Notes: generated from the sequence alone by a model not told the origin. A DNA stretch of 64,000 nucleotides from Candidatus Bathyarchaeota archaeon (GCA_963706285.1 CAVPLU010000004.1:1-64000); one strand, 5' to 3'. Shown: positions 11,998 to 38,830, counted from the stretch's first letter. Numbers and translations are program-made.

Positions 11998-12738
11998 CTA
12001 CACGATCGGGGGACCGACTGTGAAGTGTTCTGCTTTCTTCAAGAGTTCCTGTGAGACATCATAGGAGCCTTGGTAGTGAGCGAATTTTTTCTTGATGAAA
12101 TTCTGCCACAAGTCTCGATCTATGTAGAAGACTCTTGCTCCGCCCAGCTCGGTCTGGAATTCTGGATAGGCTTTCGATTTGTGAGCCCATTGCAAGCCGA
12201 TGACGCGGAATCCATTGTAGCTTTCGAAGCACGCCTCCCACATGTCAGCGCCAAGATAGTCAAAGGCGTACTCGGCTTTGGCGTAGTAGAGAGCAGGTCC
12301 CGCGTCGACGCCTCTCATGAAGCTCATTGTGTGGAGGCTGTAGGCGGTCTTTTCGTTGAACATTCGTGCGTTGGCCAAGCCTGCGAGTTGGCCATCGATT
12401 ATGCCAACGAACGTGTAGGCGTCTTTGATCCTGTGGATCTTCTGGGCGAGAACTTCGCCGTATGTTCTAACGCCTACTATGTCATAGAAGTCCTTCGGGA
12501 TGAACATGTACGGCTTGATCGCCTCCAACAATTGGTCAAACTCATCATCTCTGAGAGATCTGACCACCATTTGCTGGCCGCCTCTCAGAGTGACGACCTT
12601 AGGTTTCCACGGCTTCTCTCTGATGATCTCCATTTCTGGGACGCCGCATCTGAGGATGGGCTCCATGTCTTCGACCTTGAGTCTGTGTTCGGGATAAGCA
12701 ACCGTTTCAGGCGGAGGATAGTAAGTTGAACTCACCAT
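11998..12738 (-). CDS. GNAT-fold N-acetyltransferase-like protein, paralog A
   Basis: GNAT-like VGIIDGQLAGLANAR; shares DFYDIV, ES..GFR and ELGGA with 32626-33292. Confidence 0.6.
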   Translation of the reverse strand: MVSSTYYPPPETVAYPEHRLKVEDMEPILRCGVPEMEIIREKPWKPKVVTLRGGQQMVVRSLRDDEFDQLLEAIKPYMFIPKDFYDIVGVRTYGEVLAQKIHRIKDAYTFVGIIDGQLAGLANARMFNEKTAYSLHTMSFMRGVDAGPALYYAKAEYAFDYLGADMWEACFESYNGFRVIGLQWAHKSKAYPEFQTELGGARVFYIDRDLWQNFIKKKFAHYQGSYDVSQELLKKAEHFTVGPPIV

Positions 12739-12872
12739 CAATACCTCGCATGCGTATTTCAGACTCAACTTGGTATTAATGTTGATAATACGCCACGAAT
12801 TGTTACTTCGTATTCGCTATCTCTAGATGCTAACCGTGGACGAGTTCGAGTAACCCAGGCGCGACACTAGGG

Positions 12873-13796
12873 TTATGCTAGATCACCTAGCTGAAGCTCA
12901 CTGGCAATGGATTCGGTTTCTTCCTTTCCGAGCGCAATATCTCGGACTAGACTTAGCGCTAGTATTGTACCGACTGCGATATCGATCCCAGACGTGTGCC
13001 CTCTAGGCAGAAGTGTCTCGAAGGCCATGACCGCCGCATCTTCGTTTTCGCTGATAACAGAATCTATCAAGACTTGCAGTTGCTCGTCTACGATCAGGTG
13101 TTGTATGTAGTCCAGCAACTTTGCGCTGATCCAGCTAGTCTTCTCTTCCAGCAGTCGCGATTCCAATAGAACTGGCTCACGTCCGATGGCCTCTACAAAT
13201 GAATTGTATGCCAGAAGGAATCCTCCCAGTACGTCATCGCCTGATGGAGTGAATCCTGCTCCTAAGCCAACAATCTTCAGCGAGGTTTCCTGAAATCGTC
13301 GATCCATTCCCGATCGTCGCAGAGGAATGATGCCATCGGACACGAAGTCAACTATCCCTGCGTGGGTGATAGCATGAGGATCCATCGCGCTTTGACTCAC
13401 GTCTATGATGCTCAAGATGAATGAGACAACATGCAAGACTTTTCCGATCTGCGCGAATTCGGATCCAAGTCTACTAGGATGCGCTAGTTGACTTTGGTAA
13501 GTTGATGCTTCGCTGAGGTCGATGACGAAGTCTGCTCCTATCTGAATTTCCTCTCCATGAGCATAGAGGAGTTCCAGCTGTTTGATTCCCTCTAGGTTGC
13601 TTGCTGTGTCGAGATTGATTGTTATCGGAGATCGCACCGAACGATTTGTGACAAATACGAGATCTCCGGTGCTGGTCTTCAAGTAGAATGAATTCGGGAA
13701 AGTGTTGACTACTCGTCCAGCGATTTCGGGATCGCTAGTGTGCAGTGCTTTGAGTGCGAGTGAGCCTACGTATTCGGCTCGCAGGGTGGCTGGCAA
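12873..13796 (-). CDS. DUF2877 / YlbF (AllH-like) protein
   Basis: GLGAGFTPSGDDVLGG and GHTSGID motifs. Confidence 0.85.
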   Translation of the reverse strand: MPATLRAEYVGSLALKALHTSDPEIAGRVVNTFPNSFYLKTSTGDLVFVTNRSVRSPITINLDTASNLEGIKQLELLYAHGEEIQIGADFVIDLSEASTYQSQLAHPSRLGSEFAQIGKVLHVVSFILSIIDVSQSAMDPHAITHAGIVDFVSDGIIPLRRSGMDRRFQETSLKIVGLGAGFTPSGDDVLGGFLLAYNSFVEAIGREPVLLESRLLEEKTSWISAKLLDYIQHLIVDEQLQVLIDSVISENEDAAVMAFETLLPRGHTSGIDIAVGTILALSLVRDIALGKEETESIASELQLGDLA

Positions 13797-13805
13797 GCTT
13801 CGTCC

Positions 13806-15089
13806 TTAGATGCCGTACCTCTGTGCGTATGATTTGAGTGCTTGCTTGAACATGTCAAGCGGGAAGGAAACCATACCTGCGCCGACTTGTCCTATTCCAG
13901 CGTCTTTGTGAGCGATTCCTGTGTTGATGGTTGGTGTGATTCCGGTCCTGACGACTTTGCGTAGATCGACTCCGGTAGGAGTTCCTTGGAAGTCAAGGAA
14001 TGGGATGATGAAGTACTTGTTCTTGGTTTGGGTGATCTCGTACATCTTCTGAGTATTCTCGATGGCGTAAGCAACGGATCCGCCGACCCAGGAAACGATT
14101 CCCGGTGCGGCTGCCATTGCAAATCCGCCGTAGCCTGCGGTTTCTGTGATCGCGCTGTCTCCTAGGTCAGGGTTTGCGTCTTTCTCGCTGTAACCTGGGA
14201 ACCAGACACCTTTTGGTACTGGTGCTGGGGCCGTGAACCATTCATTGTTGAGTCCGCTAACCCAGATTCCGGCGTCTGTTCCGTTTCTTGTAAGCACGGT
14301 CACGATTGTGCTGTACTTGATGCCGTGAGCAGCGAGAGTCATCGCCTTTCCGCTCGCCATGCCCAAATTGAGTAGGGTGAAGTTGTTCTGAGCCATGAAG
14401 TTGAACGACTCGATCAGTGTCTTCTTGTCGAGTCCGGACTGCATCATGTAGGGCGTAATCTCGCGCAGGAAGAGTGAGGTGGCTGCGTTGTAGCGGTTGT
14501 GGCAGTCATCGCCCATGGTCAGTGCTTGGATAATTATGGGTTTCATTGCGACGCCATCTTTCTCTTTCTTGATCTCCTTGAGAGTTGCTTCAAGCGTCGT
14601 TGCGAGCGTGTCACGCATCCAAGTGAGTCTTTGGATTACTTCGCTTGAGTAGGCTCCGTACCTGAGGACCTTGCCTATGCCTTCGTTCAGGTTTGAGTAC
14701 GTCTCATTGGCGTACTTGCGATCGCGAACCGCGTAGACAGGCATGTTTGGCGAGATGATGCCCGCCATTGGTCCGGCGGCGTTGTGGTGATGATTTGGGA
14801 CAAATGTGATTTGGCCGGATTTCGCGAGCTTCTCCGCCTCGGGTCCATCACGCGCCCAGCCTTCGTAAATTGACGCTCCCATGACGGCACCTTTCATCGG
14901 GCCGCTCATACGATTCCATTCGATGGGCGGTCCCGCATGCAAAAGCATCTTCTCTTTCATGCCAGGGATGACCCTTCGGGCTAGTCCCATATCGACCCAC
15001 ACAGGGTCAGATTCCATCATCCTTTCGACAGCCTGCTGATTGGCCCTCTCAATCTCGTCCTTTATCGGGCCGGGACTCTGTGATGTCAA
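13806..15089 (-). CDS. DUF1116 / YlbE (AllG-like) protein
   Basis: LLHAGPPI, GPMAGIISP, ALTMGDDCHNR, DLGDSAITE, INTGIAHK..GIGQVGAG. Confidence 0.92.
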   Translation of the reverse strand: MTSQSPGPIKDEIERANQQAVERMMESDPVWVDMGLARRVIPGMKEKMLLHAGPPIEWNRMSGPMKGAVMGASIYEGWARDGPEAEKLAKSGQITFVPNHHHNAAGPMAGIISPNMPVYAVRDRKYANETYSNLNEGIGKVLRYGAYSSEVIQRLTWMRDTLATTLEATLKEIKKEKDGVAMKPIIIQALTMGDDCHNRYNAATSLFLREITPYMMQSGLDKKTLIESFNFMAQNNFTLLNLGMASGKAMTLAAHGIKYSTIVTVLTRNGTDAGIWVSGLNNEWFTAPAPVPKGVWFPGYSEKDANPDLGDSAITETAGYGGFAMAAAPGIVSWVGGSVAYAIENTQKMYEITQTKNKYFIIPFLDFQGTPTGVDLRKVVRTGITPTINTGIAHKDAGIGQVGAGMVSFPLDMFKQALKSYAQRYGI

Positions 15090-15187
15090 AAAGAAGTCTC
15101 ACCTGTTCGTTGAACCTTACCCAAAGTATAAGAGAATTTTGAAACACTTAACTCGTGTCCGCAGATAGTGAGTGCTGGCGTAGCAGA

Positions 15188-16807
15188 TTGAGTATCGTAC
15201 GCAACGTGGTGAAAAGGAACTTTCACCGAGACTCAGTTCGACTTCTTCATCTCTCAGAGGAGGCGAAGAAGATTGACGGCATCAAGGACGCAGCGGTTGT
15301 CATGGGCACGACAACCAACAAGGAGATTCTGCAGAAGCTTGACCTTCTTACGAACGAGGGCAGAGCGGCCTTGGAAAGTGACATGATACTTGCCGTGATA
15401 GCTGACTCTCAGTCAATCATAGACGGCGCCATGAAACAGATTGAGGAAATGATTCTCAAGCCACCCTCCGCCAAGGGGCGCTCATTCTACAGCGTCGATG
15501 CAGCGCTGCAGGCAGTTCCTGACGCGAACCTTGCGATAGTCTCGATACCCGGGGAACACGCAAGGGAGGTCGTCCTGAAGCTTCTCGACAAGGGTCTCAG
15601 CGTGCATCTGTTCAGTGACCATGTTCCGCCAGAACATGAGCTTGAGCTAAAGCAATACGCGCACGAGAAAGGCCTGCTAGTAATGGGCCCCGGAGCTGGG
15701 ACATCAATAGTTAGCGGAAAAGCGATCGCGTTTGCCAACGTCGTGAAGAAAGGTAAGATAGGTGTAGTAGCTGCTGCTGGAACGGGGCTCCAAGAGGTCA
15801 CGGTTCTCCTGAGCGAAGCCGGACTAGGGGTTTCTCAGGCGCTAGGCACTGGTGGAGGAGATGTCAAAGCCAAGATAGGAGGCATTACAACGCTCCAGTC
15901 CATCGATGCGTTTGAGCAGGATCCTGCAACAACCATGGTACTCGTGGTTTCAAAGCCACCTGACACAGACGTGAAAAAGAGAATTCTCGATCACATAGCA
16001 AGTAAAACCAAGAAGCAATATGTGACGTGTTTCGTAGGCCCAGAGAGCTACGCGGTTCCAGCAAATGCCCGAGGACGAATCAAAGCAACGAAAACACTTC
16101 ACGCCGCCGTCTTGGAGACCGTGAAAGCCGCCGAGCCCAATCATCACGCAGAGATAGTCAGTCGTTTCTCGATGTCTCAGAATGAACTTGCAGCTCTCGC
16201 AAGCAAGATCTCAAATGGATTGAGCGAGAGGCAGAGATGGATCAGAGGATTATACACTGGCGGAACATTCGCCTACGAGGCTCTCGTGCTGCTGGGGCGA
16301 ATGATTGGTGATGTCTACTCTAATGCGCCAATTGATGCCAAACTGAAGCTTGTCGATTCCTACAAGAGCTTGAAGGACTCAATCGTTGATTTGGGCGAGG
16401 AGGAATTCACTGAAGGTAGAGCGCATCCCATGATAGACCCAACGATTCGAAAGATGAGGCTCGTTGAAGAGGCGAACGATCCCGAAGTTGCCGTAATCAT
16501 GATGGATTTCATGCTCGGGTATGGTTCCCACTCTGACCCCGCCGGAGCCATGCTCAGCGCAATCTCGGATGCGAAGAACATCGCAAAAAAGAACGGGAGA
16601 TCACTGCCCATACTTGCGCACGTGTGCGGAACCGAGCAGGATCCGCAGCCTCTGTCAGAGCAGGTTGCGAAGCTACGGAATGCCGGAGTCGAAGTGTTTC
16701 CAACAAACGCGCTCATGGTTATCGCGAGTGCCCTCATCTCAAGAAAAGGAAATATCGCCAACTCGATCATGGAAGATGTTTACGATGCTTTCCTCGCGGG
16801 GTTCTAG
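15188..16807 (+). CDS. fdrA: FdrA (AllF-like, acyl-CoA synthetase fold)
   Basis: DSVRL, LFSDHV, MGPGAGT, GTGLQEV, GLYTGGT, GRAHPMID with the phospho-His. Confidence 0.9.
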   Translation: MSIVRNVVKRNFHRDSVRLLHLSEEAKKIDGIKDAAVVMGTTTNKEILQKLDLLTNEGRAALESDMILAVIADSQSIIDGAMKQIEEMILKPPSAKGRSFYSVDAALQAVPDANLAIVSIPGEHAREVVLKLLDKGLSVHLFSDHVPPEHELELKQYAHEKGLLVMGPGAGTSIVSGKAIAFANVVKKGKIGVVAAAGTGLQEVTVLLSEAGLGVSQALGTGGGDVKAKIGGITTLQSIDAFEQDPATTMVLVVSKPPDTDVKKRILDHIASKTKKQYVTCFVGPESYAVPANARGRIKATKTLHAAVLETVKAAEPNHHAEIVSRFSMSQNELAALASKISNGLSERQRWIRGLYTGGTFAYEALVLLGRMIGDVYSNAPIDAKLKLVDSYKSLKDSIVDLGEEEFTEGRAHPMIDPTIRKMRLVEEANDPEVAVIMMDFMLGYGSHSDPAGAMLSAISDAKNIAKKNGRSLPILAHVCGTEQDPQPLSEQVAKLRNAGVEVFPTNALMVIASALISRKGNIANSIMEDVYDAFLAGF

Positions 16808-16821
16808 TTGGAGGGATTGTT

Positions 16822-16995
16822 TTGGTCGACAAAATCTTGAAGCTCTTCTCTTCTGATCTCAAAGTCATCAATATTGGACTTGAGATCTTCAACGACGCTT
16901 TGAAAGCCCAAGGTGTCGACTCCGTTCAAGTATCATGGCAGCCGCCTCCCAAACTTGAGAAAGAGTACGAGGACATACTGGCAAAGATACTCTAG
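16822..16995 (+). CDS. Small FdrA-associated domain protein (57 aa)
   Basis: TTG start after GGAGGG; VINIGLEIF...QGVDSVQVSWQPP. Confidence 0.75.
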   Translation: MVDKILKLFSSDLKVINIGLEIFNDALKAQGVDSVQVSWQPPPKLEKEYEDILAKIL

Positions 16996-17350
16996 ACGGC
17001 TCGGTGACACCTAGCCTAATGAGACCGCCATGATCAGCTAGTGTCTAGGCGGGTTCTCCTGAACCAGTAGGACATCAACGTTTCAGTGTAGAATACCTAT
17101 ATTCCGTCAGTCATGCACTCTTGAATCGATTAACGATGTCTGATGAAAAGCCTCCAATAATAGTGAGCGTAATCAACCCAACACACGCGATGCAAGTTCG
17201 GTCCGACACACACGACTCCCAGGATCAGGAATCTCCTTCCTAATACATGACAACCGAAGGCGCAAGCAGCGTATTCTGGAGACTCAGTTCGTGAGCTACG
17301 GTCCTGTGCCTGACTATCGTCAGTCAAGCACCTGCAAGACTCGGTGTTCC

Positions 17351-17861
17351 TCAGCGTTTTGCAGCCTGCGGTGCGGTTGATTTTGTCTGATTTTGTTCTT
17401 TCGCGCATTCGAGTATAGCTTCGATCATTTGCTTGTAGGTTCCACATCGGCAAATATGCCCGCTTAGATGCTCTCTGATTTCGTTCTCTGTCGGATTTGG
17501 ATTCGTTGAGAGTAGATAGTGTGCTGTCAACACGAATGATGGCGTGCAGAATCCGCATTGCATGGCTCCCTTTTCGACAAAATGCTTCTGTATCGGAGAA
17601 AGTTGTCCTTCAGGTGCCAGCCCCTCGGCTGTTATGATGTCTCTGCCATCTGCTTCCACTGCGAGACACAAGGCAGGACTTTACGGGTTTGCCGTCAAGC
17701 AGGACTGTGCATAGGCCACATTCTCCTCTCCAGCATCCAGCCTTGACGCTCTTCACACCTGCCTTGTCGCGAATCGCATCTAGGAGGAGTTCGTTGTCTT
17801 TGATCTCGAGCTTTCGATCTACACCGTTGATCTTGATGCTGATCGCACGTGTCATTTTCAT
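17351..17861 (-). CDS. Mo-hydroxylase 2x[2Fe-2S] small subunit, copy 2 (frameshift ~17665)
   Basis: GCWRGECGLCTV, QCGFCTP, HICRCGTY. Confidence 0.92.
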
Positions 17862-18742
17862 CAGCTCCCGAGTAGTCTGCGGAATGCTTTGATTGATAGT
17901 ACCTCAAGGATGTGTGATCGGTACTCTGCTTTTGCAAGAACATCTGTCATCGGTTCAGTTGACTTCTTGATTATGCCAGCTGCTTCATCGATCAGTTGTG
18001 GAACAGGACTCTTACGTTTGAACAGGTCTTCAATTTCTTGTACTCTCGCCGGTTTTGAAGCAATCGCGCCGTAAGCGAATCTCACTGTCCTGTTTTCAGG
18101 TTTGGTGGGATTTGCGCATAATGCTGCTAAGCTTGCGATGCTGAATTCACTGCTTGACGTGTGTTTCAGGAATAGGCTCTTTGAGTTTTCGGGTGGAGAT
18201 TTCAGATGGATCGCGACGGCAAGTTCGTTTGGTTCGAGTGCAGTCTCCGCAATTCCTTTAATGAATTCAGTGATGGGGATGTGTCGCCTTCCCTTGACGC
18301 TGGCTGCTTCGATCTCCGCGTCGAAGATTAGGAGTGGTGTTGGGCCGTCTACGAATGGAAGTGCTTCGCAAATGTCTCCCAACAGTGTTGAGCGATTCCT
18401 AAGAACCGGGTCGCTGAGAAGAGAGATACAATCTTGCAGGGCTGTGTATTTCTGCTTCAGTGGTGCAAAAGCTAGAAGCTCATTCATGGTTGTGGTGGCG
18501 CCGATCGTCAAGCCTTTGGCGTCGTCGTCACGGAGCATGTGGAGTTCGTCGATCGCTTTGATGTCTATGACCCATCGGGGGTCAACGAGTCTTTCCTTCA
18601 TGAATGCGAGCAGCCCGATTCCGCCAGCCATGATCTTCGCTTCGTCTTTATGCTCGTCCAGTAATTGTAGAGCCTCCTGCAGTGTCTTCGGCTTGAGGTA
18701 CTGGAAGTCGGGGAGTGTCAAGTATGGTGATCCGAATGACAT
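17861..18742 (-). CDS. Mo-hydroxylase FAD subunit, copy 2
   Basis: FQYLKPKTLQEAL, IMAGGIGL, LRNRSTLLGDIC. Confidence 0.9.
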   Translation of the reverse strand: MSFGSPYLTLPDFQYLKPKTLQEALQLLDEHKDEAKIMAGGIGLLAFMKERLVDPRWVIDIKAIDELHMLRDDDAKGLTIGATTTMNELLAFAPLKQKYTALQDCISLLSDPVLRNRSTLLGDICEALPFVDGPTPLLIFDAEIEAASVKGRRHIPITEFIKGIAETALEPNELAVAIHLKSPPENSKSLFLKHTSSSEFSIASLAALCANPTKPENRTVRFAYGAIASKPARVQEIEDLFKRKSPVPQLIDEAAGIIKKSTEPMTDVLAKAEYRSHILEVLSIKAFRRLLGS

Positions 18743-18743
18743 C

Positions 18744-21120: not shown

Positions 21121-21256
21121 TTTTGACCTTCCAGGAGTAGCTTGTATGTTAGGACGGGGATCATGTTGCGCTTTAACGATATCGGCCGTCGGCTAGATGC
21201 TGCTGCAATTCTCAAGATTGGCGCTTTCGAGTAGTCAGTTGTGAGTACGCAAGTGG

Positions 21257-21728
21257 TCACTGCTTAATCCTAGACGCTTCAAGGATTGCGTCGATTATCT
21301 GTCTGTATCCTGTGCACCTACACAGTACTCCCTCAATAGCCTCAACCACGTCCTCACGCGTCGGGGACGGGTTTCGTTTCAGTAGGGCTTCTCCTGCAAG
21401 TACTGCTGCTGGTGTGCAGAATCCGCACTGGAGTGCGCCGTGCTCGATGAATTTCCTCTGAATAGGGCTGAGGACACCGTCTTTGGCAATTCCTTCGATC
21501 GTCGTTATCCTATGCCCATTCGCTCTCAACTGCAAGTACTAGGCAGGATTTTACTGGGGTGTCGTCGAGTAGCACGGTGCAGAGTCCGCAGTCTCCGCGC
21601 TCGCATGCGGTCTTGGTTCCTGTGAGTCCGAGCTTATGCCGCAATATCCACAGCAAAGTCTTGTTCGATTCCGTTACTATGTCGTTGTCGATTCCGTTGA
21701 CGGTTAGCTTGATCTTATGCTCGGCCAA
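21257..21728 (-). CDS. Mo-hydroxylase 2x[2Fe-2S] small subunit, copy 1 (frameshift ~21525)
   Basis: ACERGDCGLCTV, QCGFCTP, LCRCTGY. Confidence 0.92.
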
Positions 21729-21729
21729 T

Positions 21730-24981: not shown

Positions 24982-25017
24982 TTCGTATCAAGCCGTCGTA
25001 TCGATCCTTCTAATCGC

Positions 25018-26385: not shown

Positions 26386-26455
26386 ATATCGTCACTCCGG
26401 GAACTTTACTTAAGGACTACGTAAGTAGTCTCGCTTAGAACTGCTAGCGCAAATG

Positions 26456-26998: not shown

Positions 26999-27039
26999 GA
27001 GCTCACATCAACACACTTGAGGATTTGAGATGGCGAAGG

Positions 27040-27339: not shown

Positions 27340-27414
27340 TGCTGCTCTGATCTTCTTGTCTCGCTCCTGAATATAGGCCTGTCACAGTTGTGATGGCAGG
27401 ACGCAGGGGTGCAA

Positions 27415-27984: not shown

Positions 27985-28262
27985 TGCCAGCTCTCCAATA
28001 TTCTGAAGTGAACTTCCGATGGCATCGTCTCTTGGATATGGGGATATTGCTCGGGCTCCGAACTAGGATCACACATGTCAGTCTGCCTCCATTTGGCATT
28101 GATCATAACGGAGGGCACGCCGGATAATCTCGTCTCCTTAGTCAACGGGATTACATTTCTGCGGGCGCATTACAGCGGTGATTCTCGTGGACGTGTCCGC
28201 TTGAAGGGGAAGTGTTCATCTACAGGCAACTGGACTGGGCGTAGATCGATCTCACCAATGCT

Positions 28263-31014: not shown

Positions 31015-31081
31015 CAGTATCATATTGGAGCGCTGTGGGTCTGCTTCGTGATCGGACCGAACATACTAGATGATGTCTTGA

Positions 31082-31426
31082 CTATGAAAGTCGCTGGAAT
31101 CTGAAACCCTCGACATCTTTTCCACGGATCTTGCGTATGTGTCCCCAAACGGGACGGACTCTATCTCCGATTCTGATCTCTTCGCTTAGGACCTGACCTG
31201 TAACCCTGACCTTGTCATTGAATTCAGCTATGGCAAGGGTTAGTGGCAGTTGTTCGATCCCTTCTGGTACTGCCCAGAGTTTCGTGAATGTCACAATTCT
31301 GCCCTCATCGCCTAGGGGCAGCTCAACAAAGTCTTTCCCTTTGCATGATGGACAGATGAGTCGTTTCGGGTATGTCGCCGCGCCGCACTTCTTACATTTG
31401 TATCCGATGAGCCTATTCTCTGCCAT
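31082..31426 (-). CDS. DUF35 zinc-ribbon/OB-fold protein
   Basis: CKKCG...YPKRLICPSC, GRIVTFT; abuts the thiolase gene. Confidence 0.9.
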   Translation of the reverse strand: MAENRLIGYKCKKCGAATYPKRLICPSCKGKDFVELPLGDEGRIVTFTKLWAVPEGIEQLPLTLAIAEFNDKVRVTGQVLSEEIRIGDRVRPVWGHIRKIRGKDVEGFRFQRLS

Positions 31427-32609
31427 CTAGCTTCTCTCCAGCACGAACGCCACAATGTTGTTTGCGAAGCCTCCCAAGTTGCAGGAGAATGCTCGCTGAG
31501 CGTTCTTCACTTGTCGCTTGTCCGCTTCTCCTCTAAGCTGCCAAGTCATTTCAACTATCTGAGCTACTCCCGTGGCTCCTACGGGGTGACCTCTCGCCTT
31601 TAGTCCGCCGGATGGATTTATCGGAAATTTTCCATCGAGCGCGGTCACGCCTTCGCGAAGCGCTTTGTGGCCTGTGCCTTTTTCGAAAAATCCTGCGTCT
31701 TCGCTCTCAACTATTTCGAGTATTGTGAAGGCGTCGTGTAGTTCTGCGAAACTCATGTCCTGTGGCGTGGTCTTGCTCATCTTGAAAGCTTGTGCAGCAG
31801 GAAACCCTGAGCGCCTCCAGTACCGCTGGATCTTTCCTGTCTTGCAAGGCCATTCTGTCAGTCGCTTGACCGACCCCCGTTATTCTGATGGGGGTGTCTG
31901 TGAATTCCTTCGCCTTGTCTGCGGAGGCTAGGAGAACTGACGCCGCTCCGTCTGTGACAGGACAACAATGGTACATCCGGATTGGATCCGATATGATGGG
32001 GTTGTTCACTTCGGCCTCTGGGGACCCGTAGATCCCCTCCAACGTTACTGGTTGCTGGATGTGGGCGTACGGATTCTTTGAACCGTTGAGGTGGTTCTTC
32101 ACGGCAACGCGTGCGAGATCCTCTTCTGTCACACCGTATTTTTCCATGTACAGTCTCGCTAGCATCCCAGCTAGGGATGGGAGTGTAACGCCGTGAACGT
32201 ATTCGGCCTCTATGTTGGTCATTGTGGCTATGTAATCGGTGATGACTTCGCCTGGTACGTGTCGCATCTTCTCCCCACCCGTAACGAGGACCGTGTCGTA
32301 CAGGCCGCACGCAATTGCACAGAAGGCGTTCTTGACAGCGGATCCTCCAGATGCAGGGCCGTTCTCCACGCGATCCGCGGCAGCGGGAGTCAACGCTAGC
32401 TGGTCCACAAGGGCGCTCCCCACGGCTGTCTGATGGTTCAATTCTCCGGCCAACATGCTGGCCGCATAGACTGCGTCGATGTTCTTGTCGCTTGCGCCGG
32501 CATCCTCTAGCGCTTTGATGCTAGATTCGGTCATAAGGCTGAGCAGAGTCTTATCGTCGTGTCTGCCGAACTTCGTCATGCCGCAACCTACGACGGAGAC
32601 GTCTCTCGA
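31427..32609 (-). CDS. Thiolase-fold protein without the N-terminal catalytic Cys (frameshift ~31800; start uncertain)
   Basis: [43 protein letters not shown]; ENGPASG in place of ExxCASG. Confidence 0.9.
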
Positions 32610-32625
32610 GTCTGCTCCCTCATCA

Positions 32626-33292
32626 CTATTGAGATACCCAGTCTAGGGGTGCGTTCTCAAATGTTCCGGCTTTCTTCAGCACATCGTCAGGTACAGGTCT
32701 TGATCCCAGCACAAGTCGAGGCTTGACTTTCTGATAGATTTCTCTAGTTATTGCCCAGGCCTTGGCTCCGCCCAATTCATGTTGCACGCCTGGTTTGACT
32801 TGGAGCCCCCACTCAACAATCCAGCGGCGAAAACCGATCGGGCTCTCTGCAGTCACAAGTATCTCTTCCGCTCCCAAGGTTTCCATGGAATGTTCATGTT
32901 TAGCTGCGAACAGGTGAGCACCAACCCTAGCACCCCGTTTCAGATGCCGTCGTGTGATAGCTGATGTGAGTCTTCTGATCATGTGCACGGGTGTTGACGA
33001 TTCCAGCCAAAGTTCCGTCAACGATTCCGATGAGACAGAACTCGTTTCTGACTCTACGTCTGTACCATCCCAGCAGCTCGGCGTATTGTCTAGCCGCGAC
33101 AATGTCGTAAAAGTCTCTTGACACTGTTAGGAGCGGCGTGATAGCCTGAAGCAGTTTCGGAACTTCTTCCCTCGCAGCCTCCCGAACTATCATGCGTTCA
33201 CCGGTAGGAAGAAGAACCGTTTTGGGAGGGTAGGGTTTCTTGGGAATGTCCCAATCTATCCCAAGTATGGACTCAATATCTTCACTCAACAA
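32626..33292 (-). CDS. GNAT-fold N-acetyltransferase-like protein, paralog B (frameshift ~32945)
   Basis: DFYDIV, DGTLAGIVNTR, ESPIGFR, QHELGGA shared with 11998-12738. Confidence 0.6.
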
Positions 33293-33473
33293 ACTGCCAC
33301 CGTATTTCGTAGCTCCGAATGCAATTATAGGCTTTTATCATGTCTTGGTAGGTAGCAAATTACTCGCCGTGCTGATGGCTTGACAACCTGACGCCGCCAT
33401 TCGTTGCAAGCGCAAGTTCTCTCTTTGACCGCTAGACACAAATTTCAGTGAAGCTATGGCGCCTTGATTCACG

Positions 33474-34070
33474 TTGGTACTAGTGGAAGACAAAAGATCC
33501 AAGAAAGTGGCGGTCATCGCCCACTGCTTGCTCAACCAGAACGCAAAGGTGAACGGATTCGCTCTCTTCCCAGCCATGATCAAGCCGCTGATCGATATTC
33601 TGCATAAGAACGATTTCGGGATCATCCAGCTTCCCTGCCCCGAAACCACACTATTGGGAACAAGACGATGGTGGTGCGTGAGGGAACAATACGACACACC
33701 GGGGTATCGAATGCACTGCATGAGAATCCTCGAACCAATACTGCCACAGATAGCGGAATACCAGAAGGAAGGGTACAAGGTGGTACTCATTGGTCTGGAT
33801 GGCAGTCCATCCTGCGGAGTAGACTGGTCAGGCACAGGCAAGATGTGGGGCGGCCCTCCAAAAATCCCCGAAGAGGAGATAGTGAAGTATCCGCTAGCGA
33901 AGAAACCTGGAATCTTCTTCGAAGAGCTGATCGCCATGATGAAGAAGGCGGGAATCGAGAAGCCTCACATGATCGGCGCAGGCTTCGACATGCCAGGATT
34001 CAAGATGGATACTATTATTGAAGGGATAGATGCGTTCCTCCGCAAAGTCATAGAACGCCTTGAGTCGTAA
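33474..34070 (+). CDS. TudS/DUF523-related Fe-S protein (putative desulfidase)
   Basis: AHCLLNQN, QLPCPE, GSPSCGV give the three Cys cluster ligands. Confidence 0.8.
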   Translation: MVLVEDKRSKKVAVIAHCLLNQNAKVNGFALFPAMIKPLIDILHKNDFGIIQLPCPETTLLGTRRWWCVREQYDTPGYRMHCMRILEPILPQIAEYQKEGYKVVLIGLDGSPSCGVDWSGTGKMWGGPPKIPEEEIVKYPLAKKPGIFFEELIAMMKKAGIEKPHMIGAGFDMPGFKMDTIIEGIDAFLRKVIERLES

Positions 34071-34213
34071 AGTCGATCTAGCTAGCGCCCCTCAGAGTGG
34101 TCTGCGGATAAAGCGCATGAAACGCCAACCTTTGCCGCTTCACTTCTAACAGACAACTGTCTCCTAACATGCAGTACAGGTTAGCTGGTAAGAAAGGACT
34201 CGTTGGCAAAGCC

Positions 34214-34221
34214 TTTAATAA
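34214..34221 (+). promoter_or_regulatory. Candidate TATA box of the BMP/ABC operon
   Basis: TTTAATAA about 30 bp before ATG 34253. Confidence 0.4.
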
Positions 34222-34252
34222 AAAAGGAAGCGCCATCCTGATCCGAGGAAAT

Positions 34253-35320
34253 ATGAACAACAAGACAACAGCGGTTGCGCTGATAGTAACGCTCGTCATC
34301 GGAATCGTGGTCGGAATTGCAGCAGCACCAATGGTCACGACCTCAGTCATAGGAGGAGTGACTCCCGGGATGACCTCTGCTATCTCCCAACTGAAAGTCG
34401 GCCTAATACTGCCGATAACTCCAGAAGACTACTCGTGGAACTACCAAGCGGACTACTCAATCAAACTGATTCAGAAACAGTTCGGATTTCAACTGACGAC
34501 TGCAGAGAACCTTTTCGACGGAACTAAGGCAGAACCAGTCGCTACCGACTGGGCATCAAAAGGATACAATGTGATAATCGGACAGGGAATTCAGTACCAA
34601 GACATGTTCAACAAGATCGCTCCACAGTTCCCCAAGACCGTGTTCGTCTGTGTCGACTGCTTTGCAGGCACGGGCAACGTGTACAATGTTTGGTGGTACA
34701 TGGCAGACGCAGCATACCTGATGGGACTACTAGCCGGCAAGATGACTCATACCAACAAGATCGGCCTGATTGGAGGTGGAAAAGCCATGTCCATCTGGGC
34801 AGGGCATGAAGCCTTCAAGAGAGGCGTTAGACAAGTGAACAAGGCTGCAACATTCCAGGAAGCATGGATGGCATTCTCATGGGCGGACGTTGCAGGTGCA
34901 AAGAAAGCAGGAGAACAGATGGCAGATCAGGGTGTTGACTTCATCTTCAGCAGCGGGGACGGAATCGATGTCGGTGTCAGACAAGTAGCCAAAGAAAAGA
35001 ACATCCAGATGACAGGAGTGTACGCGGATGCGGCACACCTAGATCCTGCCCACATAGCCCAGAGCATGGTCGTGCGATGGGACATAGCCTACCTTACAGC
35101 GATATTTGACTACGTACGCGGAGACTACAACAACAAATGGCTGCAGGCAGACCTCTTCGCCGGAATGGTCTCTCTGGGCGCATTTGGCAGCGCCGTACCA
35201 CAGGACACCCAAACCTACCTGACTGCACAGCAGAGTTCACTTCGAATGGGCGTCTCATTGCCATTCACGCTGGACTCAACGTGCTTCGACAAACCAGATC
35301 AACCGCAGTGCAAAGTCTAG
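34253..35320 (+). CDS. BMP-family (nucleoside/purine-type) ABC substrate-binding protein
   Basis: N-terminal TM anchor; DYSWN, AYLMGLLAG, NKIGLIGG, DQGVDFIF. Confidence 0.85.
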   Translation: MNNKTTAVALIVTLVIGIVVGIAAAPMVTTSVIGGVTPGMTSAISQLKVGLILPITPEDYSWNYQADYSIKLIQKQFGFQLTTAENLFDGTKAEPVATDWASKGYNVIIGQGIQYQDMFNKIAPQFPKTVFVCVDCFAGTGNVYNVWWYMADAAYLMGLLAGKMTHTNKIGLIGGGKAMSIWAGHEAFKRGVRQVNKAATFQEAWMAFSWADVAGAKKAGEQMADQGVDFIFSSGDGIDVGVRQVAKEKNIQMTGVYADAAHLDPAHIAQSMVVRWDIAYLTAIFDYVRGDYNNKWLQADLFAGMVSLGAFGSAVPQDTQTYLTAQQSSLRMGVSLPFTLDSTCFDKPDQPQCKV

Positions 35321-36337
35321 CCAAGCTACGCGGCGTGGGCTACAACGCCCTCGCGCTAGCTGTGGGCATATCCTCGGGGCTGGCTCTGGTCCTCGCCACT
35401 GGCGGAGACATAAGAGCAGCCTCGATCTCCCTTTTGTTAAGCCCGATATCGAGTGTCTACAGTTTTTCCGAGATATTCGTGCGACTCACAATTCTCTTGA
35501 TAATGGGTCTAGGAATCTCTCTGGGTTTGAGGGCTGGAGTATGGAACGTCGGAGCTGAAGGGCAGTACATCGTTGGAAGCGTGATGGCGATGGTGACGGC
35601 AATGTACCTTACCTCCGTTCCTCCTGCACTGACGCTCGTCATCATGATGCTGGCAGGAGCAGGAGGCGGTGTTCTTTGGATGATCGTCCCAGCGGTTCTT
35701 AAGGCAAGATTTGGAGCTAACGAGATCATAGTCACTCTATTACTGAATCTCGTTGCATCGAACTTCCTCCTATACGCTTTGGATGGTCCAATCCGTGCAA
35801 AGGGATCAGGCGGATACCTAATCTCCGACATTCTGCCTCCTGAACTCAGACTTCCCAAGCTCATCCCCCAAACGAGACTGGGCATTGGGGTACTGATTGC
35901 ATTAGGTTTGGTCGTAGTATTCTATTTGCTGAGCGAAAGAACGTCTTTTGGTCTTCAAGTCAGAACAGTAGGAAGAAACCAGCAAGCAGCAAGATATGCC
36001 GGAATAAGCATACCGAGAATCAGTCATCATGACGCTACTTCTTGCAGGAGCGACGGCCGGCTTAGCTGGAGCAGTGCACGTTAGTGGCGTAATATTTACT
36101 CTTGATCCTGGATATCCTTCCGGCTATGGGTTCATTGCGATAATTGTCGCAATGCTGGGCGGAACATCTGTAGTCGGGACAACCATAGCTGCATTGGTGA
36201 TGAGTTACTTTATCGTTGGTGCTGAATCGATGCAAAGCGCCGCAGGTGTCCCCTTCGCTCTTGTATACACGATTGAAGGCATTATTCTCTTCAGCTTGGC
36301 CGCAGGTCAATATCTGATGTCTAAAGAAAACAGGTGA
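35308..36337 (+). CDS. Nucleoside-type ABC permease 1 (frameshift ~36023; start approximate)
   Basis: WNVGAEGQY, NEIIVTLLLN, AARYAGI, GYGFIAIIVAMLG. Confidence 0.88.
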
Positions 36338-36374
36338 CTCTGCCACGGTCGATATTCTGTTCGCTGAAGCGATC

Positions 36375-37271
36375 TTGTATCAGACTCTGAAGCTGGTTCC
36401 CGCGATTCTCTTGGCGAGTCTTGGCGAACTCGTCGCGGAGAAATCCGGCGTAGTGAATCTTGGCGTCGATGGACTGATGCTGATGGGAGCGTTCACAGCT
36501 TTCACTGTAACCTATTTGACAGGAAATCCATGGCTGGGCATAGTTGGCGCGGTCATGGTATCAGTTCTCTTGGGACTGATGTTTTCATATTTTGCGATCA
36601 ATCTACGTGTGAACCAAGTGGTCGTCGGTCTTGGTCTATGGCTGTTCGGTCTAGGGCTATCTGACACTCTCTTCAGAGGATTCTTCTCCATTGGCTACAC
36701 GCCAACTGTGCCAATAATTGGAGACATAAGCATTCCATTCCTAACTTCGATCCCTGTTATTGGGAGACTCTTCTTTGGACAGAATCCAATAGTCTACATC
36801 TCCATTTTTCTGATACCTGTCGTGGCACTCTTTCTGAGCAAAACGAACCTGGGAATGAGGATTGCAGCCGTAGGTGAGAATCCAAGGGCCGCGGAAACAA
36901 TGGGGGTTGATGTCTACAAGATCCGGTATATAGCGGTGCTAATTGGCGCCGCATTTGCAGGCGCAGGCGGCGCATACTACTCGACAAGTCTCCTGAGTAC
37001 ATTCATCCTAAACATCACTTTCGGGCGCGGCTTCATAGCAATAGCTATGATATACTTCGGAAAATGGAAGCCCTATCGTGTTTTGCTACCACTAATAATC
37101 TTCAGTTTCGTTGATTCACTGCAACTTGGCGTGCAGACTTTGGGTGTACCGATAAAGTACTTCTTCCTCAACATGATTCCTTACATTACGATTATTGCAT
37201 TGATTCCGATACTTGGCAGACATGCGGAGGCTCCCGCAGCCCTCATGGAGCCGTACAAGAAAGGCGGATAA
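36375..37271 (+). CDS. Nucleoside-type ABC permease 2
   Basis: EKSGVVNLGVDGLML, GENPRAA, GRGFIAIA, PAAL..PY. Confidence 0.92.
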   Translation: MYQTLKLVPAILLASLGELVAEKSGVVNLGVDGLMLMGAFTAFTVTYLTGNPWLGIVGAVMVSVLLGLMFSYFAINLRVNQVVVGLGLWLFGLGLSDTLFRGFFSIGYTPTVPIIGDISIPFLTSIPVIGRLFFGQNPIVYISIFLIPVVALFLSKTNLGMRIAAVGENPRAAETMGVDVYKIRYIAVLIGAAFAGAGGAYYSTSLLSTFILNITFGRGFIAIAMIYFGKWKPYRVLLPLIIFSFVDSLQLGVQTLGVPIKYFFLNMIPYITIIALIPILGRHAEAPAALMEPYKKGG

Positions 37272-37288
37272 ATCCAGGCGATCGGATC

Positions 37289-38830
37289 CTATGACGAATG
37301 CGATTTGCTCTGCGTCATTAGCCTAGCGATCTCTTCCACTTTAGCTTGCGCAACAGGGAATATCCCGGAAATTCGGCCGTTACTAATGACTGCAATCCGA
37401 TCGCTCATGTCAAGAAGTTCGTCAAGTTCATTGGAGATCAGAAGAATAGCTCTTCCCTTCTTCTTCTCCTTCATCAGTAGGTTCCGCGTGTACTCAGTTG
37501 CGGCAACATCCAAGCCCTTAGTAGGATTGTGGGCAATAACGATTTTCGGTCCCCAGAAGAGTTCTCTTGACAGCAGGAACTTCTGCTTGTTTCCTCCAGA
37601 AAGGGTCCATGCCTGCACATTCTCCGACTGAGTAGCAACATTGTACTCTGAAATCAATTTCGTCAACTCCGATCTTACGGACTTCAGGTCCAGCAAACCA
37701 GATTTTGTGAACATCTTTGCTATGTGCGGCTCTATAATCAGATTGTCCGGTAGGGAGAAATCGAATACCAGTCCAATCTTCTGATCTTCTGGAATGTGGG
37801 CTACACCAAGCTTCCTGATTTCATCAGGAGCCAACCCTGTGACATCGTTACCCATGATGAGAAGCTTGCCGCCAGTTGGCTTGCGAATACCGGTTGAGAC
37901 TTCAACTAGCTCTCTCTGTCCGTTTCCTGCTATTCCCGCGAGGCCTAGGATCTCTCCGCCTTTGACGGAGATCGAGACATCTTCGAGAGCAGGAAATCCA
38001 ATGTTGTTCAATGCTGATATGTTTTGAAGCTCAAGGAAGGCTTCCCCGATTTGCGACGATAGTCTGTCCACTCGAAAGACCACATCGCGTCCGACGATCA
38101 TCTTTGCCAGGTCTGCCGCCGTAACGTTTCTTGTGGCTTCGGTGGCAACAACCATCCCGCGTCTTAGTACTGTCACGTTATCGGTTACGGCCAGAATCTC
38201 GTCGATCTTGTGTGACACAAAAATGACGGATTTTCCCGAAGCTACCATTTGCCGCAATGCAGAGAAAAGTTCACGAGTTTCCAGGGGCGTCAGCACAGAT
38301 GTCGGTTCATCAAGAATAAGTATGGTTGCGCCCTTGTAGAGGGCCTTTAGAATCTCAACCGACTGTCTCTGTCCTGCGGATAGGTCTCTGATTGTAGCAT
38401 TCGGATCAACAGCAAGTCCGTGCTGCCTAGCAACTTCCGTGATATGTTTCGCCAAGCCTTGGCGATCAACGAATGGGTGTTTCCATCCCTCGCCCTCCAT
38501 GACAGAGATGTTCTCGACAACTGTCATTGTGGGGACGAGCATGAACTCCTGATGCACCATCGCGATTCCAGAGTTCATTGCATCCTTGGGAGAACGGAAG
38601 TGCATTTGTTTACCATTGACGAGGATCCTGCCGCAGTCAGGGCTGTAGAGACCGTAGATGATGTTGCAGAGAGTTGTTTTGCCGGCTCCATTCTCGCCTA
38701 GAAGAGCATGAACCTCTCCGCGTTTGAGGCTGAATGTGATGTTGTTATTGGCTAATAGTGTTCCAAATTGTTTTGTGACACCTTCGGTTGCCAACGCGAG
38801 GTCGACTGGGTTGGTCCTCTCGGATGCCAT
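37289..38830 (-). CDS. Nucleoside/sugar ABC ATPase with duplicated NBD
   Basis: GENGAGKT, LDEPT, GIAGNGQ, LSGGNKQK. Confidence 0.95.
   Translation of the reverse strand: MASERTNPVDLALATEGVTKQFGTLLANNNITFSLKRGEVHALLGENGAGKTTLCNIIYGLYSPDCGRILVNGKQMHFRSPKDAMNSGIAMVHQEFMLVPTMTVVENISVMEGEGWKHPFVDRQGLAKHITEVARQHGLAVDPNATIRDLSAGQRQSVEILKALYKGATILILDEPTSVLTPLETRELFSALRQMVASGKSVIFVSHKIDEILAVTDNVTVLRRGMVVATEATRNVTAADLAKMIVGRDVVFRVDRLSSQIGEAFLELQNISALNNIGFPALEDVSISVKGGEILGLAGIAGNGQRELVEVSTGIRKPTGGKLLIMGNDVTGLAPDEIRKLGVAHIPEDQKIGLVFDFSLPDNLIIEPHIAKMFTKSGLLDLKSVRSELTKLISEYNVATQSENVQAWTLSGGNKQKFLLSRELFWGPKIVIAHNPTKGLDVAATEYTRNLLMKEKKKGRAILLISNELDELLDMSDRIAVISNGRISGIFPVAQAKVEEIARLMTQSKSHSS

Follow-up and report, generated by a model that had tools for sequence, protein, structure and literature searches.

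We analysed a 64,000-nucleotide stretch of DNA (the window), the first 64 kb of contig 4 in the genome of a Candidatus Bathyarchaeota archaeon (GCA_963706285.1; 2.13 Mb in 21 contigs, 51% G+C). Between positions 11998 and 38830 it holds a gene block that an earlier reading of the DNA, made from the sequence only, had proposed as an undescribed archaeal pathway for the breakdown of N-heterocycles or (thio)nucleobases. The window also encodes the archaeal termination factor FttA (41659-43587), and the closest public loci lie in Candidatus Bathyarchaeia metagenome-assembled genomes (MAGs) from peat and soil. Families were assigned with Pfam and NCBIfam profile scans of the open reading frames (ORFs) of the window, and every gene named in the sequence-only reading was found in its place, with its family confirmed. 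Our own reading, held with middling confidence, is that the block comprises two interleaved copies of a widely conserved catabolic cassette, predicted to act on an oxidised N-heterocycle, most likely a pyrimidine of the uracil/thymine type including its thio-forms. The genes are as follows.

11998-12738, minus strand: Y241a, GNAT-like, about 246 amino acids (aa), cassette marker of the AllH-adjacent type; no Pfam or NCBIfam match
12873-13796, minus strand: AllH-like subunit (DUF2877; PF11392, 68.8 bits)
13806-15089, minus strand: AllG-like subunit (DUF1116; PF06545, 284.3 bits)
15155-16807, plus strand: AllF/FdrA-like subunit, divergently oriented to AllG-AllH (PF00549 Ligase_CoA, 119.4 bits; PF02629 CoA_binding, 40.6 bits)
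16816-16995, plus strand: small free-standing domain (VINIGL...WQPP) that matches the E. coli FdrA C-terminus
17351-17861, minus strand: CoxS1, 2x[2Fe-2S] subunit, split near 17665-17667 (Fer2 and Fer2_2 on two ORFs)
17861-18757, minus strand: CoxM1, FAD subunit (PF00941, 135.5 bits; PF03450, 47.8 bits)
18718-21120, minus strand: CoxL1, molybdopterin subunit of the FdrA-adjacent type (three XDH-family domains)
about 21257-21730, minus strand: CoxS2, split near 21524 (Fer2_2; N-terminal part found by tblastn at 21495-21713)
21730-22603, minus strand: CoxM2, split near 22225 (FAD_binding_5 and CO_deh_flav_C on two ORFs; tblastn pieces)
22600-24981, minus strand: CoxL2, molybdopterin subunit (XDH-family domains, Pfam)
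25018-25470, minus strand: CoxG (SRPBCC) accessory protein (PF06240, 93.5 bits)
25594-26385, minus strand: cyclase-family metal amidohydrolase, candidate ring opener (PF04199, 130.2 bits)
26456-26998, minus strand: BioY biotin transporter (PF02632, 144.2 bits)
27040-27339, minus strand: ThiS/MoaD/SAMP-like beta-grasp protein with a GGG end (MoaD_arch, 42.6 bits against a cut-off of 49.5)
27415-27984, minus strand: GDT1 cation antiporter, probable passenger (Pfam)
28263-31014, plus strand: P-type ATPase, split, probable passenger (Pfam)
31082-31426, minus strand: DUF35 protein (ChsH2-type zinc ribbon and OB fold), partner of the thiolase-like protein (Pfam)
31427-32579, minus strand: thiolase-fold protein whose nucleophile position is taken by Pro, split by one extra base near 31799 (Pfam)
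about 32629-33300, minus strand: Y241b, second GNAT-like paralogue, thiolase-adjacent type, frame break near 32940 (tblastn)
33474-34070, plus strand: TudS-related protein of the CD3072 family, putative desulfidase (NF045597, 153.1 bits against a cut-off of 130)
34169-35320, plus strand: BMP binding protein (PF02608, 144.0 bits)
35137-36337, plus strand: permease 1, split near 36021 (BPD_transp_2, 95.6 and 21.9 bits)
36375-37271, plus strand: permease 2 (BPD_transp_2, 127.8 bits)
37289-38830, minus strand: double ABC ATPase (162.1 bits)
9918-10583, strand n/a: DeoC-family aldolase, by family assignment, 1.4 kb upstream of the block

Three enzyme systems stand out in this inventory. The FdrA, DUF1116 and DUF2877 subunits adjoin at 12873-16807 and all score above the Pfam cut-offs, which places them in the AllFGH protein families. 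Each of the two molybdenum (Mo) hydroxylase sets has the composition of the L-M-S family, namely a large subunit with the Ald_Xan_dh_C, MoCoBD_1 and MoCoBD_2 domains, an FAD subunit and a 2x[2Fe-2S] subunit. The PF02608 protein, the two BPD_transp_2 permeases and the double ABC ATPase together form a BMP/PnrA-type ABC importer. Taken as a whole, the window reads as two interleaved cassette modules. Module A reads as Y241a-AllH-AllG, the divergent FdrA and small domain, and CoxS1-M1-L1. Module B reads as CoxS2-M2-L2, CoxG, the cyclase, BioY, the MoaD-like protein, two passengers, DUF35-thiolase-like-Y241b, the TudS-related protein and the BMP importer.

The conservation of this arrangement was followed through the Y241 genes. 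We found 516 loci encoding a Y241 relative, with one genome per species, and examined the best 80 of them with 10-kb flanks (compared loci carry L-numbers below), counting a neighbour when tblastn covered at least 40% of the query within 10 kb of Y241. These 80 loci were picked with Y241a-type patterns (FESYNG) and form a biased sample, so the counts for b-type partners (thiolase, BioY) are underestimates. FdrA was found near Y241 in 45 of the 80 loci (25 of the 39 full-20-kb loci) and the cyclase likewise in 45 (26 of 39), followed by AllG in 38 (23 of 39), the large subunit of the XDH family in 35 (24 of 39) and AllH in 22 (14 of 39). Three or all four of the modules FdrA, AllG, cyclase and XDH large subunit were present in 21 of the 39 full-20-kb loci, and none of them in four (L037, L047, L060 and L075). 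The 80 loci carry 14 phylum labels, and the tidiest operons belong to Caldisericota, Chloroflexota and Spirochaetota. The first has Y241-AllH-FdrA-AllG-cyclase-CoxM-CoxS-CoxL-NCS2 permease on one strand, the second adenine deaminase-AllH-FdrA-AllG-cyclase-Y241-NCS2 permease-CoxMSL, and the third CoxSML-OAD-beta-BCCP-MmdA-like carboxyltransferase-FlK-like thioesterase-Y241. An Anaerolineae operon runs Y241-FdrA-AllG-tandem cyclase-CoxMSL-CoxG, and in each of the four operons the genes share one strand. Among cultivated organisms, the Anaerolineae-type locus L067 belongs to Anaerolinea thermophila and its relatives, and Marinitoga hydrogenitolerans DSM 16785 encodes a Y241 homologue. The pathway had been described as archaeal in the sequence-only reading, a label that is too narrow since the cassette is widespread in anaerobic bacteria.

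The same association was seen at the level of whole genomes. Among 201 sampled genomes of the class, 14 encode Y241 and 16 encode AllG, with both in 12 and neither in 183. Counted by genus, five have both, two Y241 only, three AllG only and 77 neither (Fisher p = 3e-5, a value that is indicative only because kin are not independent). In the genus of the window both genes occur in all six genomes. A sample of the archaeal phylum showed XDH-family genes adjoining Y241 in seven of nine regions and AllFGH parts in five of nine. The clustering is not due to chance, and the co-occurrence and clustering in other genomes on which the sequence-only reading had made its pathway depend are thus both observed. 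A literature search made mostly outside subscription journals found no report that combines FdrA/DUF1116/DUF2877 with a cyclase and an enzyme of the XDH family, nor one of an anaerobic oxidative pyrimidine route; within that search the pathway is, as had been claimed, undescribed.

These counts bear directly on the possibility that there is no pathway at all, and that unrelated operons lie side by side by chance in a decaying region whose broken frames mark the decay. As assembled, seven genes occupy two frames each (CoxS1, CoxS2, CoxM2, the P-type ATPase, the thiolase-like gene, Y241b and permease 1), and an extra base at 18811, seen in one run only, may be an eighth break at the CoxL1 C-terminus; seven or eight breaks in 27 kb, and a block interrupted by GDT1 and the P-type ATPase, are what such decay would leave. 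We aligned Logan contigs from four wetland metagenome runs to positions 17000-36900 (six rows of the result table lie outside this reading). The short-read contigs lack one base at 17665/17667, 21524, 30444, 31799 and 36021/36023. With that base omitted CoxS1 lengthens from 109 to 175 aa, CoxS2 from 93 to 160 aa, the P-type ATPase from 745 to 920 aa, the thiolase-like protein from 297 to 390 aa and permease 1 from 317 to 401 aa. The frame breaks at these five sites are single-base insertion errors of the assembly. Among the rows considered, no correction by a read contig was found for CoxM2 (break at about 22225) or Y241b (at about 32940). All the frame-broken genes are intact in short-read relatives. 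Since five breaks vanish in independent contigs and the relatives are intact, both Mo-hydroxylase triplets are very probably complete in the organism. The earlier claim of two complete triplets therefore needs a qualification: both L-M-S sets are present, but S1, S2 and M2 are split as assembled, and S1 and S2 are restored when the extra base is left out. With the breaks vanishing in this way, the genes whole in relatives, and both synteny across 14 phylum labels and co-occurrence between genomes, we consider a chance assembly of decaying genes extremely unlikely. Long homopolymers are scarce across the genome. The carbamate kinase gene on contig 8 is also broken, into four frame pieces, and the aEF-2 gene is intact, so the insertion errors spare some long genes. 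The apparent pseudogenes resolved here are single-base insertion errors, a point that bears on any claim about gene content drawn from this genome.

The limits of the block were less sharp than the sequence-only reading had drawn them. GDT1 and the P-type ATPase were found in one and three of the 80 loci, and in this position only in same-genus relatives (L010 and L098), so that both are probably passengers outside the pathway. We had also considered the thiolase-like/DUF35 genes, BioY and the ThiS-like gene as unrelated insertions (0-4 of 80 loci), an idea that was dropped when the Y241b-type loci and those of the phylum sample placed them beside the cassette. DUF35 and the thiolase-like gene stand next to Y241b in L093, L096, L098 and L106; BioY lies between biotin-dependent decarboxylase genes and CoxSML-Y241 in L104 and L107 (0 of 80 in the first locus set); and a ThiS/MoaD-like gene recurs beside the cassette in L013, L016, L019 and L102. 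What had been called one block thus holds for the thiolase-like/DUF35 pair, BioY and the MoaD-like gene, but not for the P-type ATPase, GDT1 and DeoC, which are shared by same-genus relatives only. The position of deoC 1.4 kb upstream was confirmed; it was found in just three of the 80 loci, again in same-genus relatives, and is not part of the block. Among the other partners, BMP transporters adjoin the cassette in L012, L013, L016, L017, L018, L038, L052, L093, L096 and L105, a TudS-related gene lies next to Y241 also in L011 and L012, and CoxG was present in 11 of the 80 loci.

Some observations concern the flanks. In the same-genus loci L001, L003 and L098 a diacylglycerol-kinase-like gene (312 aa) and an FAD-linked oxidase (467-586 aa) lie between TM1506 and Y241a. 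The window has there, at 11532-11973, just a 97-aa oxidase fragment (compare L001, about 10800-13500), and neither gene was found in the whole genome by tblastn at 1e-8. The missing pair reflects either a deletion or a mis-join. Just upstream, at 10686-11412, the window encodes a 90-aa biotinyl/lipoyl carrier protein and a TM1506/DUF1893 protein, both kept in same-genus relatives. Contigs 6 and 7 each hold one more copy of the carrier together with an MmdA-like carboxyltransferase, with near-equal scores, and these copies may represent a duplicated or co-assembled region (the contamination estimate is 7.5%). On the other side of the block, at 38945-39813, two adjoining ORFs (115 and 175 aa) with a signal-like N-terminus, a C-terminal membrane anchor and no Pfam match correspond to a single gene of L016, which encodes 319 aa and is flanked by Y241 and the ABC ATPase. 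They probably represent one further frame break, and the product is possibly an accessory surface protein of the importer.

We then considered the two Mo-hydroxylases. L1 and L2 are, besides a 67-aa fragment on contig 16, the sole XDH-family large subunits that tblastn found in the genome. In a tree of 41 cassette-linked large subunits they fall into sister clades inside one archaeal clade (FastTree SH-like support 96-99, no bootstrap), and by this sequence tree they are sister paralogues that arose by duplication within archaea. L1-type genes adjoin FdrA, and in other Thermoproteota the L2-type genes have Y241, BioY and decarboxylase genes beside them. In bacteria the cassette mostly comes with one L-M-S set. 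Sister paralogy and the single set in most bacteria favour two substrate specificities over two successive steps, and they speak against the two hydroxylations in series that had been suggested. Both proteins retain the GGGFGGK and GxGE blocks and, like the cyclase with its metal motif, look functional. The loop AYRCSFR, which we take to be the active-site loop of the aerobic (form I) CO dehydrogenase, was found in neither by motif search, and the CO-dehydrogenase models score below their cut-offs. In the same tree the large subunits of Anaerolineae L031, L039, L050 and L067 form a separate deep clade that includes a second copy from Thermoproteota L102 and L105. Genes for molybdenum cofactor (Moco) synthesis, sought on the suggestion of the sequence-only reading, are present in the genome as two copies of MoaE and one MoaC, and MobA-like transferases were found in L019 and L066.

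The AllFGH-like enzyme has a reference system in E. coli, where AllF-AllG-AllH (FdrA-YlbE-YlbF) is described as an oxamic transcarbamylase that acts with the carbamate kinase AllK (PMC11326118, PMC9843812); in what we drew from PMC11326118 the only substrate tested for this carbamoyltransferase is oxalurate. There the carbamate kinase gene ybcF comes directly after allFGH, and allB, allC, allD and allE surround them. The archaeal FdrA is 35% identical to the E. coli protein and shares its GRxHPMIDPT block, AllG is 46% identical to YlbE over 417 aa, and AllH 32% identical to YlbF over the C-terminal 112 aa. The two systems have in common the three protein families, this block and the VINIGL domain, and a carbamate kinase, which lies elsewhere in this genome and beside the cassette in L013 and L066. 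They differ in that the window has no allB, allC, allD, allE or carbamate kinase nearby, that the partners here are a Mo-hydroxylase, a cyclase-family hydrolase and a GNAT-fold protein, that FdrA is divergent from AllG-AllH with the small domain as a separate gene, that FdrA falls just under the cut-off of the NCBIfam subfamily NF004760 (422.7 against 433 bits), and that the substrate is probably other than oxalurate. By its sequences the enzyme belongs to the AllFGH protein families, and by its gene context it would not belong to the E. coli functional system.

This comparison raises the alternative that AllFGH acts canonically on oxalurate, which the Mo enzyme and the cyclase would derive from a hydantoin/parabanate-type or triazine-related ring. 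The identities of AllG and FdrA to the E. coli proteins would fit such a role, as would a report (PMC12625717) in which allFGHK of archaea and of comammox organisms adjoins biuret/triuret genes and bmpA-nupABC; for the nitrifier MAGs of that report, archaeal allFGHK with bmpA-nupABC is given with no hydroxylase, cyclase or Y241 in the part of the text available to us. No biuret, triuret or allantoin genes, however, were found in the window or in the frequent neighbour clusters of the 80 loci. The CoA-ester type neighbours would also go unexplained, oxamate having no such fate, and FdrA is, as noted above, just short of the E. coli subfamily. We consider an oxalurate substrate improbable.

In E. 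coli and Anaerolineae the VINIGL...WQPP domain is part of FdrA; in Caldisericota and Spirochaetota it forms the N-terminus of AllG, and here it is a separate gene; it is out of frame with FdrA in short-read relatives too (L001 and L003), so its separation is no assembly break, and the domain may join FdrA to AllG. This mobile domain of about 55 aa (VINIGL...W.P) was located at 16816-16995 in the window, at 13165-13323 in L054, at 7710-7862 in L031 and at residues 510-554 of E. coli FdrA. The AlphaFold2 (AF2) model of AllH (predicted local distance difference test, pLDDT, 93; predicted template modelling score, pTM, 0.92) shows a beta domain at the N-terminus and a C-terminal domain built of helices only, and it gave no match to folds of the PDB at E <= 0.001; the sequence contains an invariant GxGxGxTPxGDD motif. 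A complex prediction of AllH, AllG and Y241 scored 0.00 and gives no verdict. In the AllG tree, whose sample is biased to Y241 loci, E. coli forms the longest branch and no clean separation of cassette-type from canonical AllG was seen.

A carbamate kinase, for which the sequence-only reading had advised a genome-wide search, is encoded on contig 8 (24552-25478), in four frame pieces with one internal TGA. Its neighbours are a gene like ornithine carbamoyltransferase (OTC), the threonine synthase gene and several genes of purine biosynthesis (purF, purD, two formyltransferases and folD). We considered whether the first two neighbours were YgeW/YgeX-like, and this was ruled out, as they are an OTC-like gene that scores below every cut-off and a threonine synthase. 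The archaeal locus L066 has a carbamate kinase of equivalog level (412.5 bits, cut-off 358) adjacent to AllH/FdrA, and in the archaeal L013 an AA_kinase gene of the same cluster stands beside FdrA.

The candidate ring opener retains the motif H52xGTH56xD58xPxH62, and H52, G54, T55, H56, D58 and H62 are kept in at least 93% of 32 sequences. We take HxGTHxDxPxH to be the metal motif of the cyclase family PF04199. Among solved structures the protein is closest to kynurenine formamidase and isatin hydrolase, and it is no arylformamidase by the TIGR03035 model (64.8 bits against a cut-off of 223). A second family member, 49% identical to that of the block, lies 330 kb downstream on contig 4 (354654-355415). 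In Anaerolineae L031, L039, L050 and L067 the cyclase gene encodes a tandem of two cyclase domains in 556-558 aa; a fusion of AllH and cyclase, considered for the 556-aa protein, was ruled out by its two Pfam cyclase stretches. The sequence-only reading had seen no uricase, allantoinase or barbiturase. As to barbiturase this stands for the whole genome, where the best match to the AtzD/barbiturase family (PF09663) reached 18 bits against a cut-off of 25, but two allantoinase-like cyclic amidohydrolases lie outside the window. They are found on contig 16 (67225-68526) and contig 9 (41252-42562), score 355.2 and 317.2 bits with the allantoinase model (cut-off 357.85), and by sequence may be an allantoinase, a dihydropyrimidinase or a dihydroorotase.

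The marker family itself, Y241, is an uncharacterised family of about 241 aa with 62 relatives in the protein collection and two copies here. Its sequences have no Pfam or NCBIfam match (PF00583 is annotated on two of the 62 relatives), and its profile found nothing meaningful among the PDB sequences. The AF2 model of Y241a (pLDDT 79) was, however, assigned a GNAT fold by Foldseek (prob 1.0, TM 0.35-0.61), with 224 PDB matches at E <= 0.001, of which those listed are all GNAT acetyltransferases. Both GNAT-like paralogues named earlier are present, the fold resting on the model of the first copy. The canonical CoA loop of GNAT proteins is Q/RxxGxG/A; in the beta4-alpha3 loop of Y241, R152 is near-invariant and G157 invariant, with non-canonical spacing. 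The set of invariant polar residues (D93, D96, R101, E105, R113, K115, D116, N133, R135, S144, H146, E182, S183, Q205 and E207) points to an enzyme, not a scaffold. Y241b has AESPIG where Y241a has FESYNG, and their partners differ as well. In the same-genus L098 and in the lineages of L093, L096, L106 and L066, the gene directly after Y241b is the thiolase-like one without the Cys, mostly accompanied by DUF35, and in L093 and L066 Y241b lies inside an AllFGH-cyclase-XDH locus.

The thiolase-like protein has VENGPASGG in the window, in L096 and in L098, which bears out the absence of the Cys: Pro takes the place of the nucleophilic Cys, a position that is presumably right, as it comes from an alignment to ExxCASGG made in the sequence-only reading and from what is general for thiolases. 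The L096 orthologue scores 452 bits with NF004720 (cut-off 420). Known thiolase-like/DUF35 pairs include the archaeal thiolase-HMGCS-DUF35 complex, BbsAB and the Ltp2-ChsH2 aldolase. The pair described here resembles them in combining an SCP-x-type thiolase fold with a DUF35 zinc-ribbon/OB protein, and differs in having Pro for the nucleophilic Cys, in having no adjoining HMG-CoA synthase, and in that the cassette pair is always preceded by the GNAT-like Y241b. The small protein at 27040-27339 does end in GGG, as a ubiquitin-like protein with a GG end had been proposed, and its MoaD/SAMP score is weak.

Neighbouring genes in other genomes provide clues to the substrate. NCS2 permeases were found in 10 loci, all below equivalog cut-offs, with the uracil permease as best match in L030 and L062. 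The MmdA-like carboxyltransferase (752 bits against a subfamily cut-off of 999) occurs in 15 of the 80 loci, BCCP in 12 and OAD-beta in 11, and methylmalonyl-CoA mutase and an FlK-like thioesterase in five loci each. Oxidative breakdown of uracil or thymine leads through ureidomalonate, or its methyl form, to malonate or methylmalonate. Ureidomalonate, which forms when the ring of barbiturate is opened, is an acyl-urea that exceeds oxalurate by one methylene. We therefore favour uracil or thymine, because ureidomalonate resembles oxalurate, because the neighbours are of the malonyl type, and because a TudS-related gene is present, which passes its NCBIfam cut-off and whose family is described as desulfurating 2- and 4-thiouracil (PMC10611767). 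The sequence-only reading had judged a pyrimidine route to fit as well as a purine one; with these neighbours added, it fits better.

Several observations weigh against a pyrimidine substrate or against parts of the cassette as we read it. An adenine deaminase of equivalog level (562.7 bits against a cut-off of 472.5) stands at the head of the operon in Chloroflexota L038, L062 and L077, and the NCS2 permease of Caldisericota L054 is best matched as the xanthine permease pbuX, below the equivalog cut-off. These two genes keep alive a purine reading with the same logic, where the Mo enzyme would hydroxylate adenine, hypoxanthine or xanthine, the cyclase would open the pyrimidine ring of xanthine or urate, and the ureido group would be phosphorolysed to carbamoyl phosphate. 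BMP/PnrA proteins are mainly known for purine nucleosides. XdhA (NF043082) is also the best NCBIfam match of L1 and L2, but at 503.4 and 539.2 bits they are far under its cut-off of 780, and below the cut-offs of all 13 models listed, so that by these scores neither ranks as a bona fide xanthine dehydrogenase (XdhA/PucD). The decarboxylase, mutase and thioesterase of methylmalonyl-CoA type, moreover, have no obvious place after a purine ring is opened, xanthine would give a ureide of the aryl-urea type, where E. coli AllFGH uses an acyl-urea, oxalurate, and the TudS family is reported to act on thiouracils (PMC10611767). A purine substrate appears to us rather unlikely, though a serious candidate.

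Another set of observations would suit a pathway that acts on the CoA-thioester of an aromatic or heteroaromatic acid, with a Mo enzyme like 4-hydroxybenzoyl-CoA reductase or nicotinate dehydrogenase and an FdrA that resembles acyl-CoA synthetases and transfers no carbamoyl group. The solved structure nearest to L1 and L2 is the alpha subunit of 4-hydroxybenzoyl-CoA reductase (326 and 347 bits), a further point against a nucleobase, and the active-site stretch of L2 is best matched by nicotinate dehydrogenase (3hrd_A, 93.6 bits). FdrA holds CoA-binding and CoA-ligase domains, and the GNAT, thiolase-like/DUF35, carboxyltransferase, mutase and thioesterase neighbours suggest CoA esters. Yet CoxM1 reaches 104.7 bits, in two stretches, against a cut-off of 404.55 with the model of the reductase beta subunit, and the cassette repeatedly includes genes for nucleobase permeases, BMP importers, adenine deaminase and carbamate kinase as well as the TudS-related gene. 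With E. coli FdrA-YlbE-YlbF reported as a carbamoyltransferase (PMC11326118), we think an aromatic CoA-thioester a doubtful substrate.

The other points on this side concern single steps. AllH was not detected in Anaerolineae-type loci, no decarboxylase beta subunit was found in this genome by tblastn, and the contig-8 carbamate kinase may serve arginine metabolism, given its OTC-like neighbour. The 80 loci were, as stated, a biased sample. The roles suggested for Y241 and the thiolase-like/DUF35 pair derive from their neighbourhood, and the substrate choice of the cassette enzymes is a prediction, as sequence alone cannot give a substrate.

For a cassette that acts on pyrimidines the following route can be proposed. 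The base would enter through the BMP-type ABC importer, whose ligand we infer, and in the bacterial versions through an NCS2 nucleobase permease instead. In an optional step the TudS-related Fe-S protein would, by its family, desulfurate a thio-base. The L-M-S Mo hydroxylase would then add an oxo group to the ring, with CoxG and the MoaD-like protein as putative helpers; L1M1S1 and L2M2S2 would probably take different bases. The cyclase-family metal amidohydrolase would open the ring to an N-acyl-ureide, which would be ureidomalonate if the base is uracil. This acyl-ureide would be cleaved with phosphate by FdrA, the small domain, AllG and AllH, by homology to E. coli AllFGH, giving carbamoyl phosphate from which carbamate kinase would make ATP. 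The C3 remainder may be handled as a CoA ester by Y241 and the Cys-less thiolase-like/DUF35 pair and, in other lineages, by a Na+ pump of the methylmalonyl-CoA-decarboxylase type with BioY, methylmalonyl-CoA mutase and an FlK-like thioesterase, as their neighbourhoods suggest. In full, we put forward tentatively an ATP-yielding, O2-independent oxidative pyrimidine route in archaea and bacteria, from uracil or thymine to (methyl)barbiturate, ureido(methyl)malonate and, by an acyl-ureide phosphorylase of AllFGH type, carbamoyl phosphate, the malonyl-level rest leaving as a CoA ester via Y241 and thiolase-like/DUF35 and, in some lineages, via a Na+-pumping decarboxylase.

Of the known anaerobic routes (reductive pyrimidine, clostridial purine and 2,8-dioxopurine) we know of none with this gene set. 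The classical oxidative pyrimidine pathway of aerobic actinomycetes uses uracil/thymine dehydrogenase, barbiturase and ureidomalonase. The proposed route shares its logic of hydroxylation by an L-M-S enzyme, hydrolytic ring opening and cleavage of ureidomalonate to a malonate-level product. It differs in its carriers, which are anaerobes and archaea, in the AtzD/barbiturase gene, not found in this genome, in place of which a cyclase-family hydrolase would open the ring, and in the cleavage, which would use phosphate and yield carbamoyl phosphate and ATP, whereas the classical pathway uses water and yields urea. Anaerobic urate degradation by the reductive, or 2,8-dioxopurine, pathway is described with XdhD, YgfK, SsnA, YgeW, YgeX and YqeA (PMC12507026; bioRxiv 10.1101/2025.05.19.654654). 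It resembles the proposed route in being anaerobic, in its start with an XDH-family enzyme and in gaining ATP through a carbamoyltransferase and carbamate kinase. In contrast, its carbamoyltransferase is the OTC-fold YgeW where FdrA/DUF1116/DUF2877 is found here, YgfK, SsnA and hydantoinase partners are absent here, and the carbamate kinase of this genome adjoins an OTC-like gene and threonine synthase, not YgeW/YgeX.

The window contributes an archaeal doubled cassette, the split of Y241 into a and b types with different partners, the sister hydroxylases, and read support for the assembly errors. Genomes of hundreds of species encode the cassette marker (the 516 loci), and in anoxic soils, sediments and guts nucleobases steadily supply nitrogen and energy. 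If the proposed route is true, FdrA/DUF1116/DUF2877 would be a general family of ureide phosphorylases and the cyclase family would gain a barbiturase-like, ring-opening member. Its confirmation would add a new ATP-yielding catabolic route and would give functions to DUF1116/DUF2877 beyond E. coli, to the GNAT-fold Y241 family and to the Cys-less thiolase-like/DUF35 pair. Peat Bathyarchaeia would then ferment nucleobases, a concrete heterotrophic trait for these archaea.

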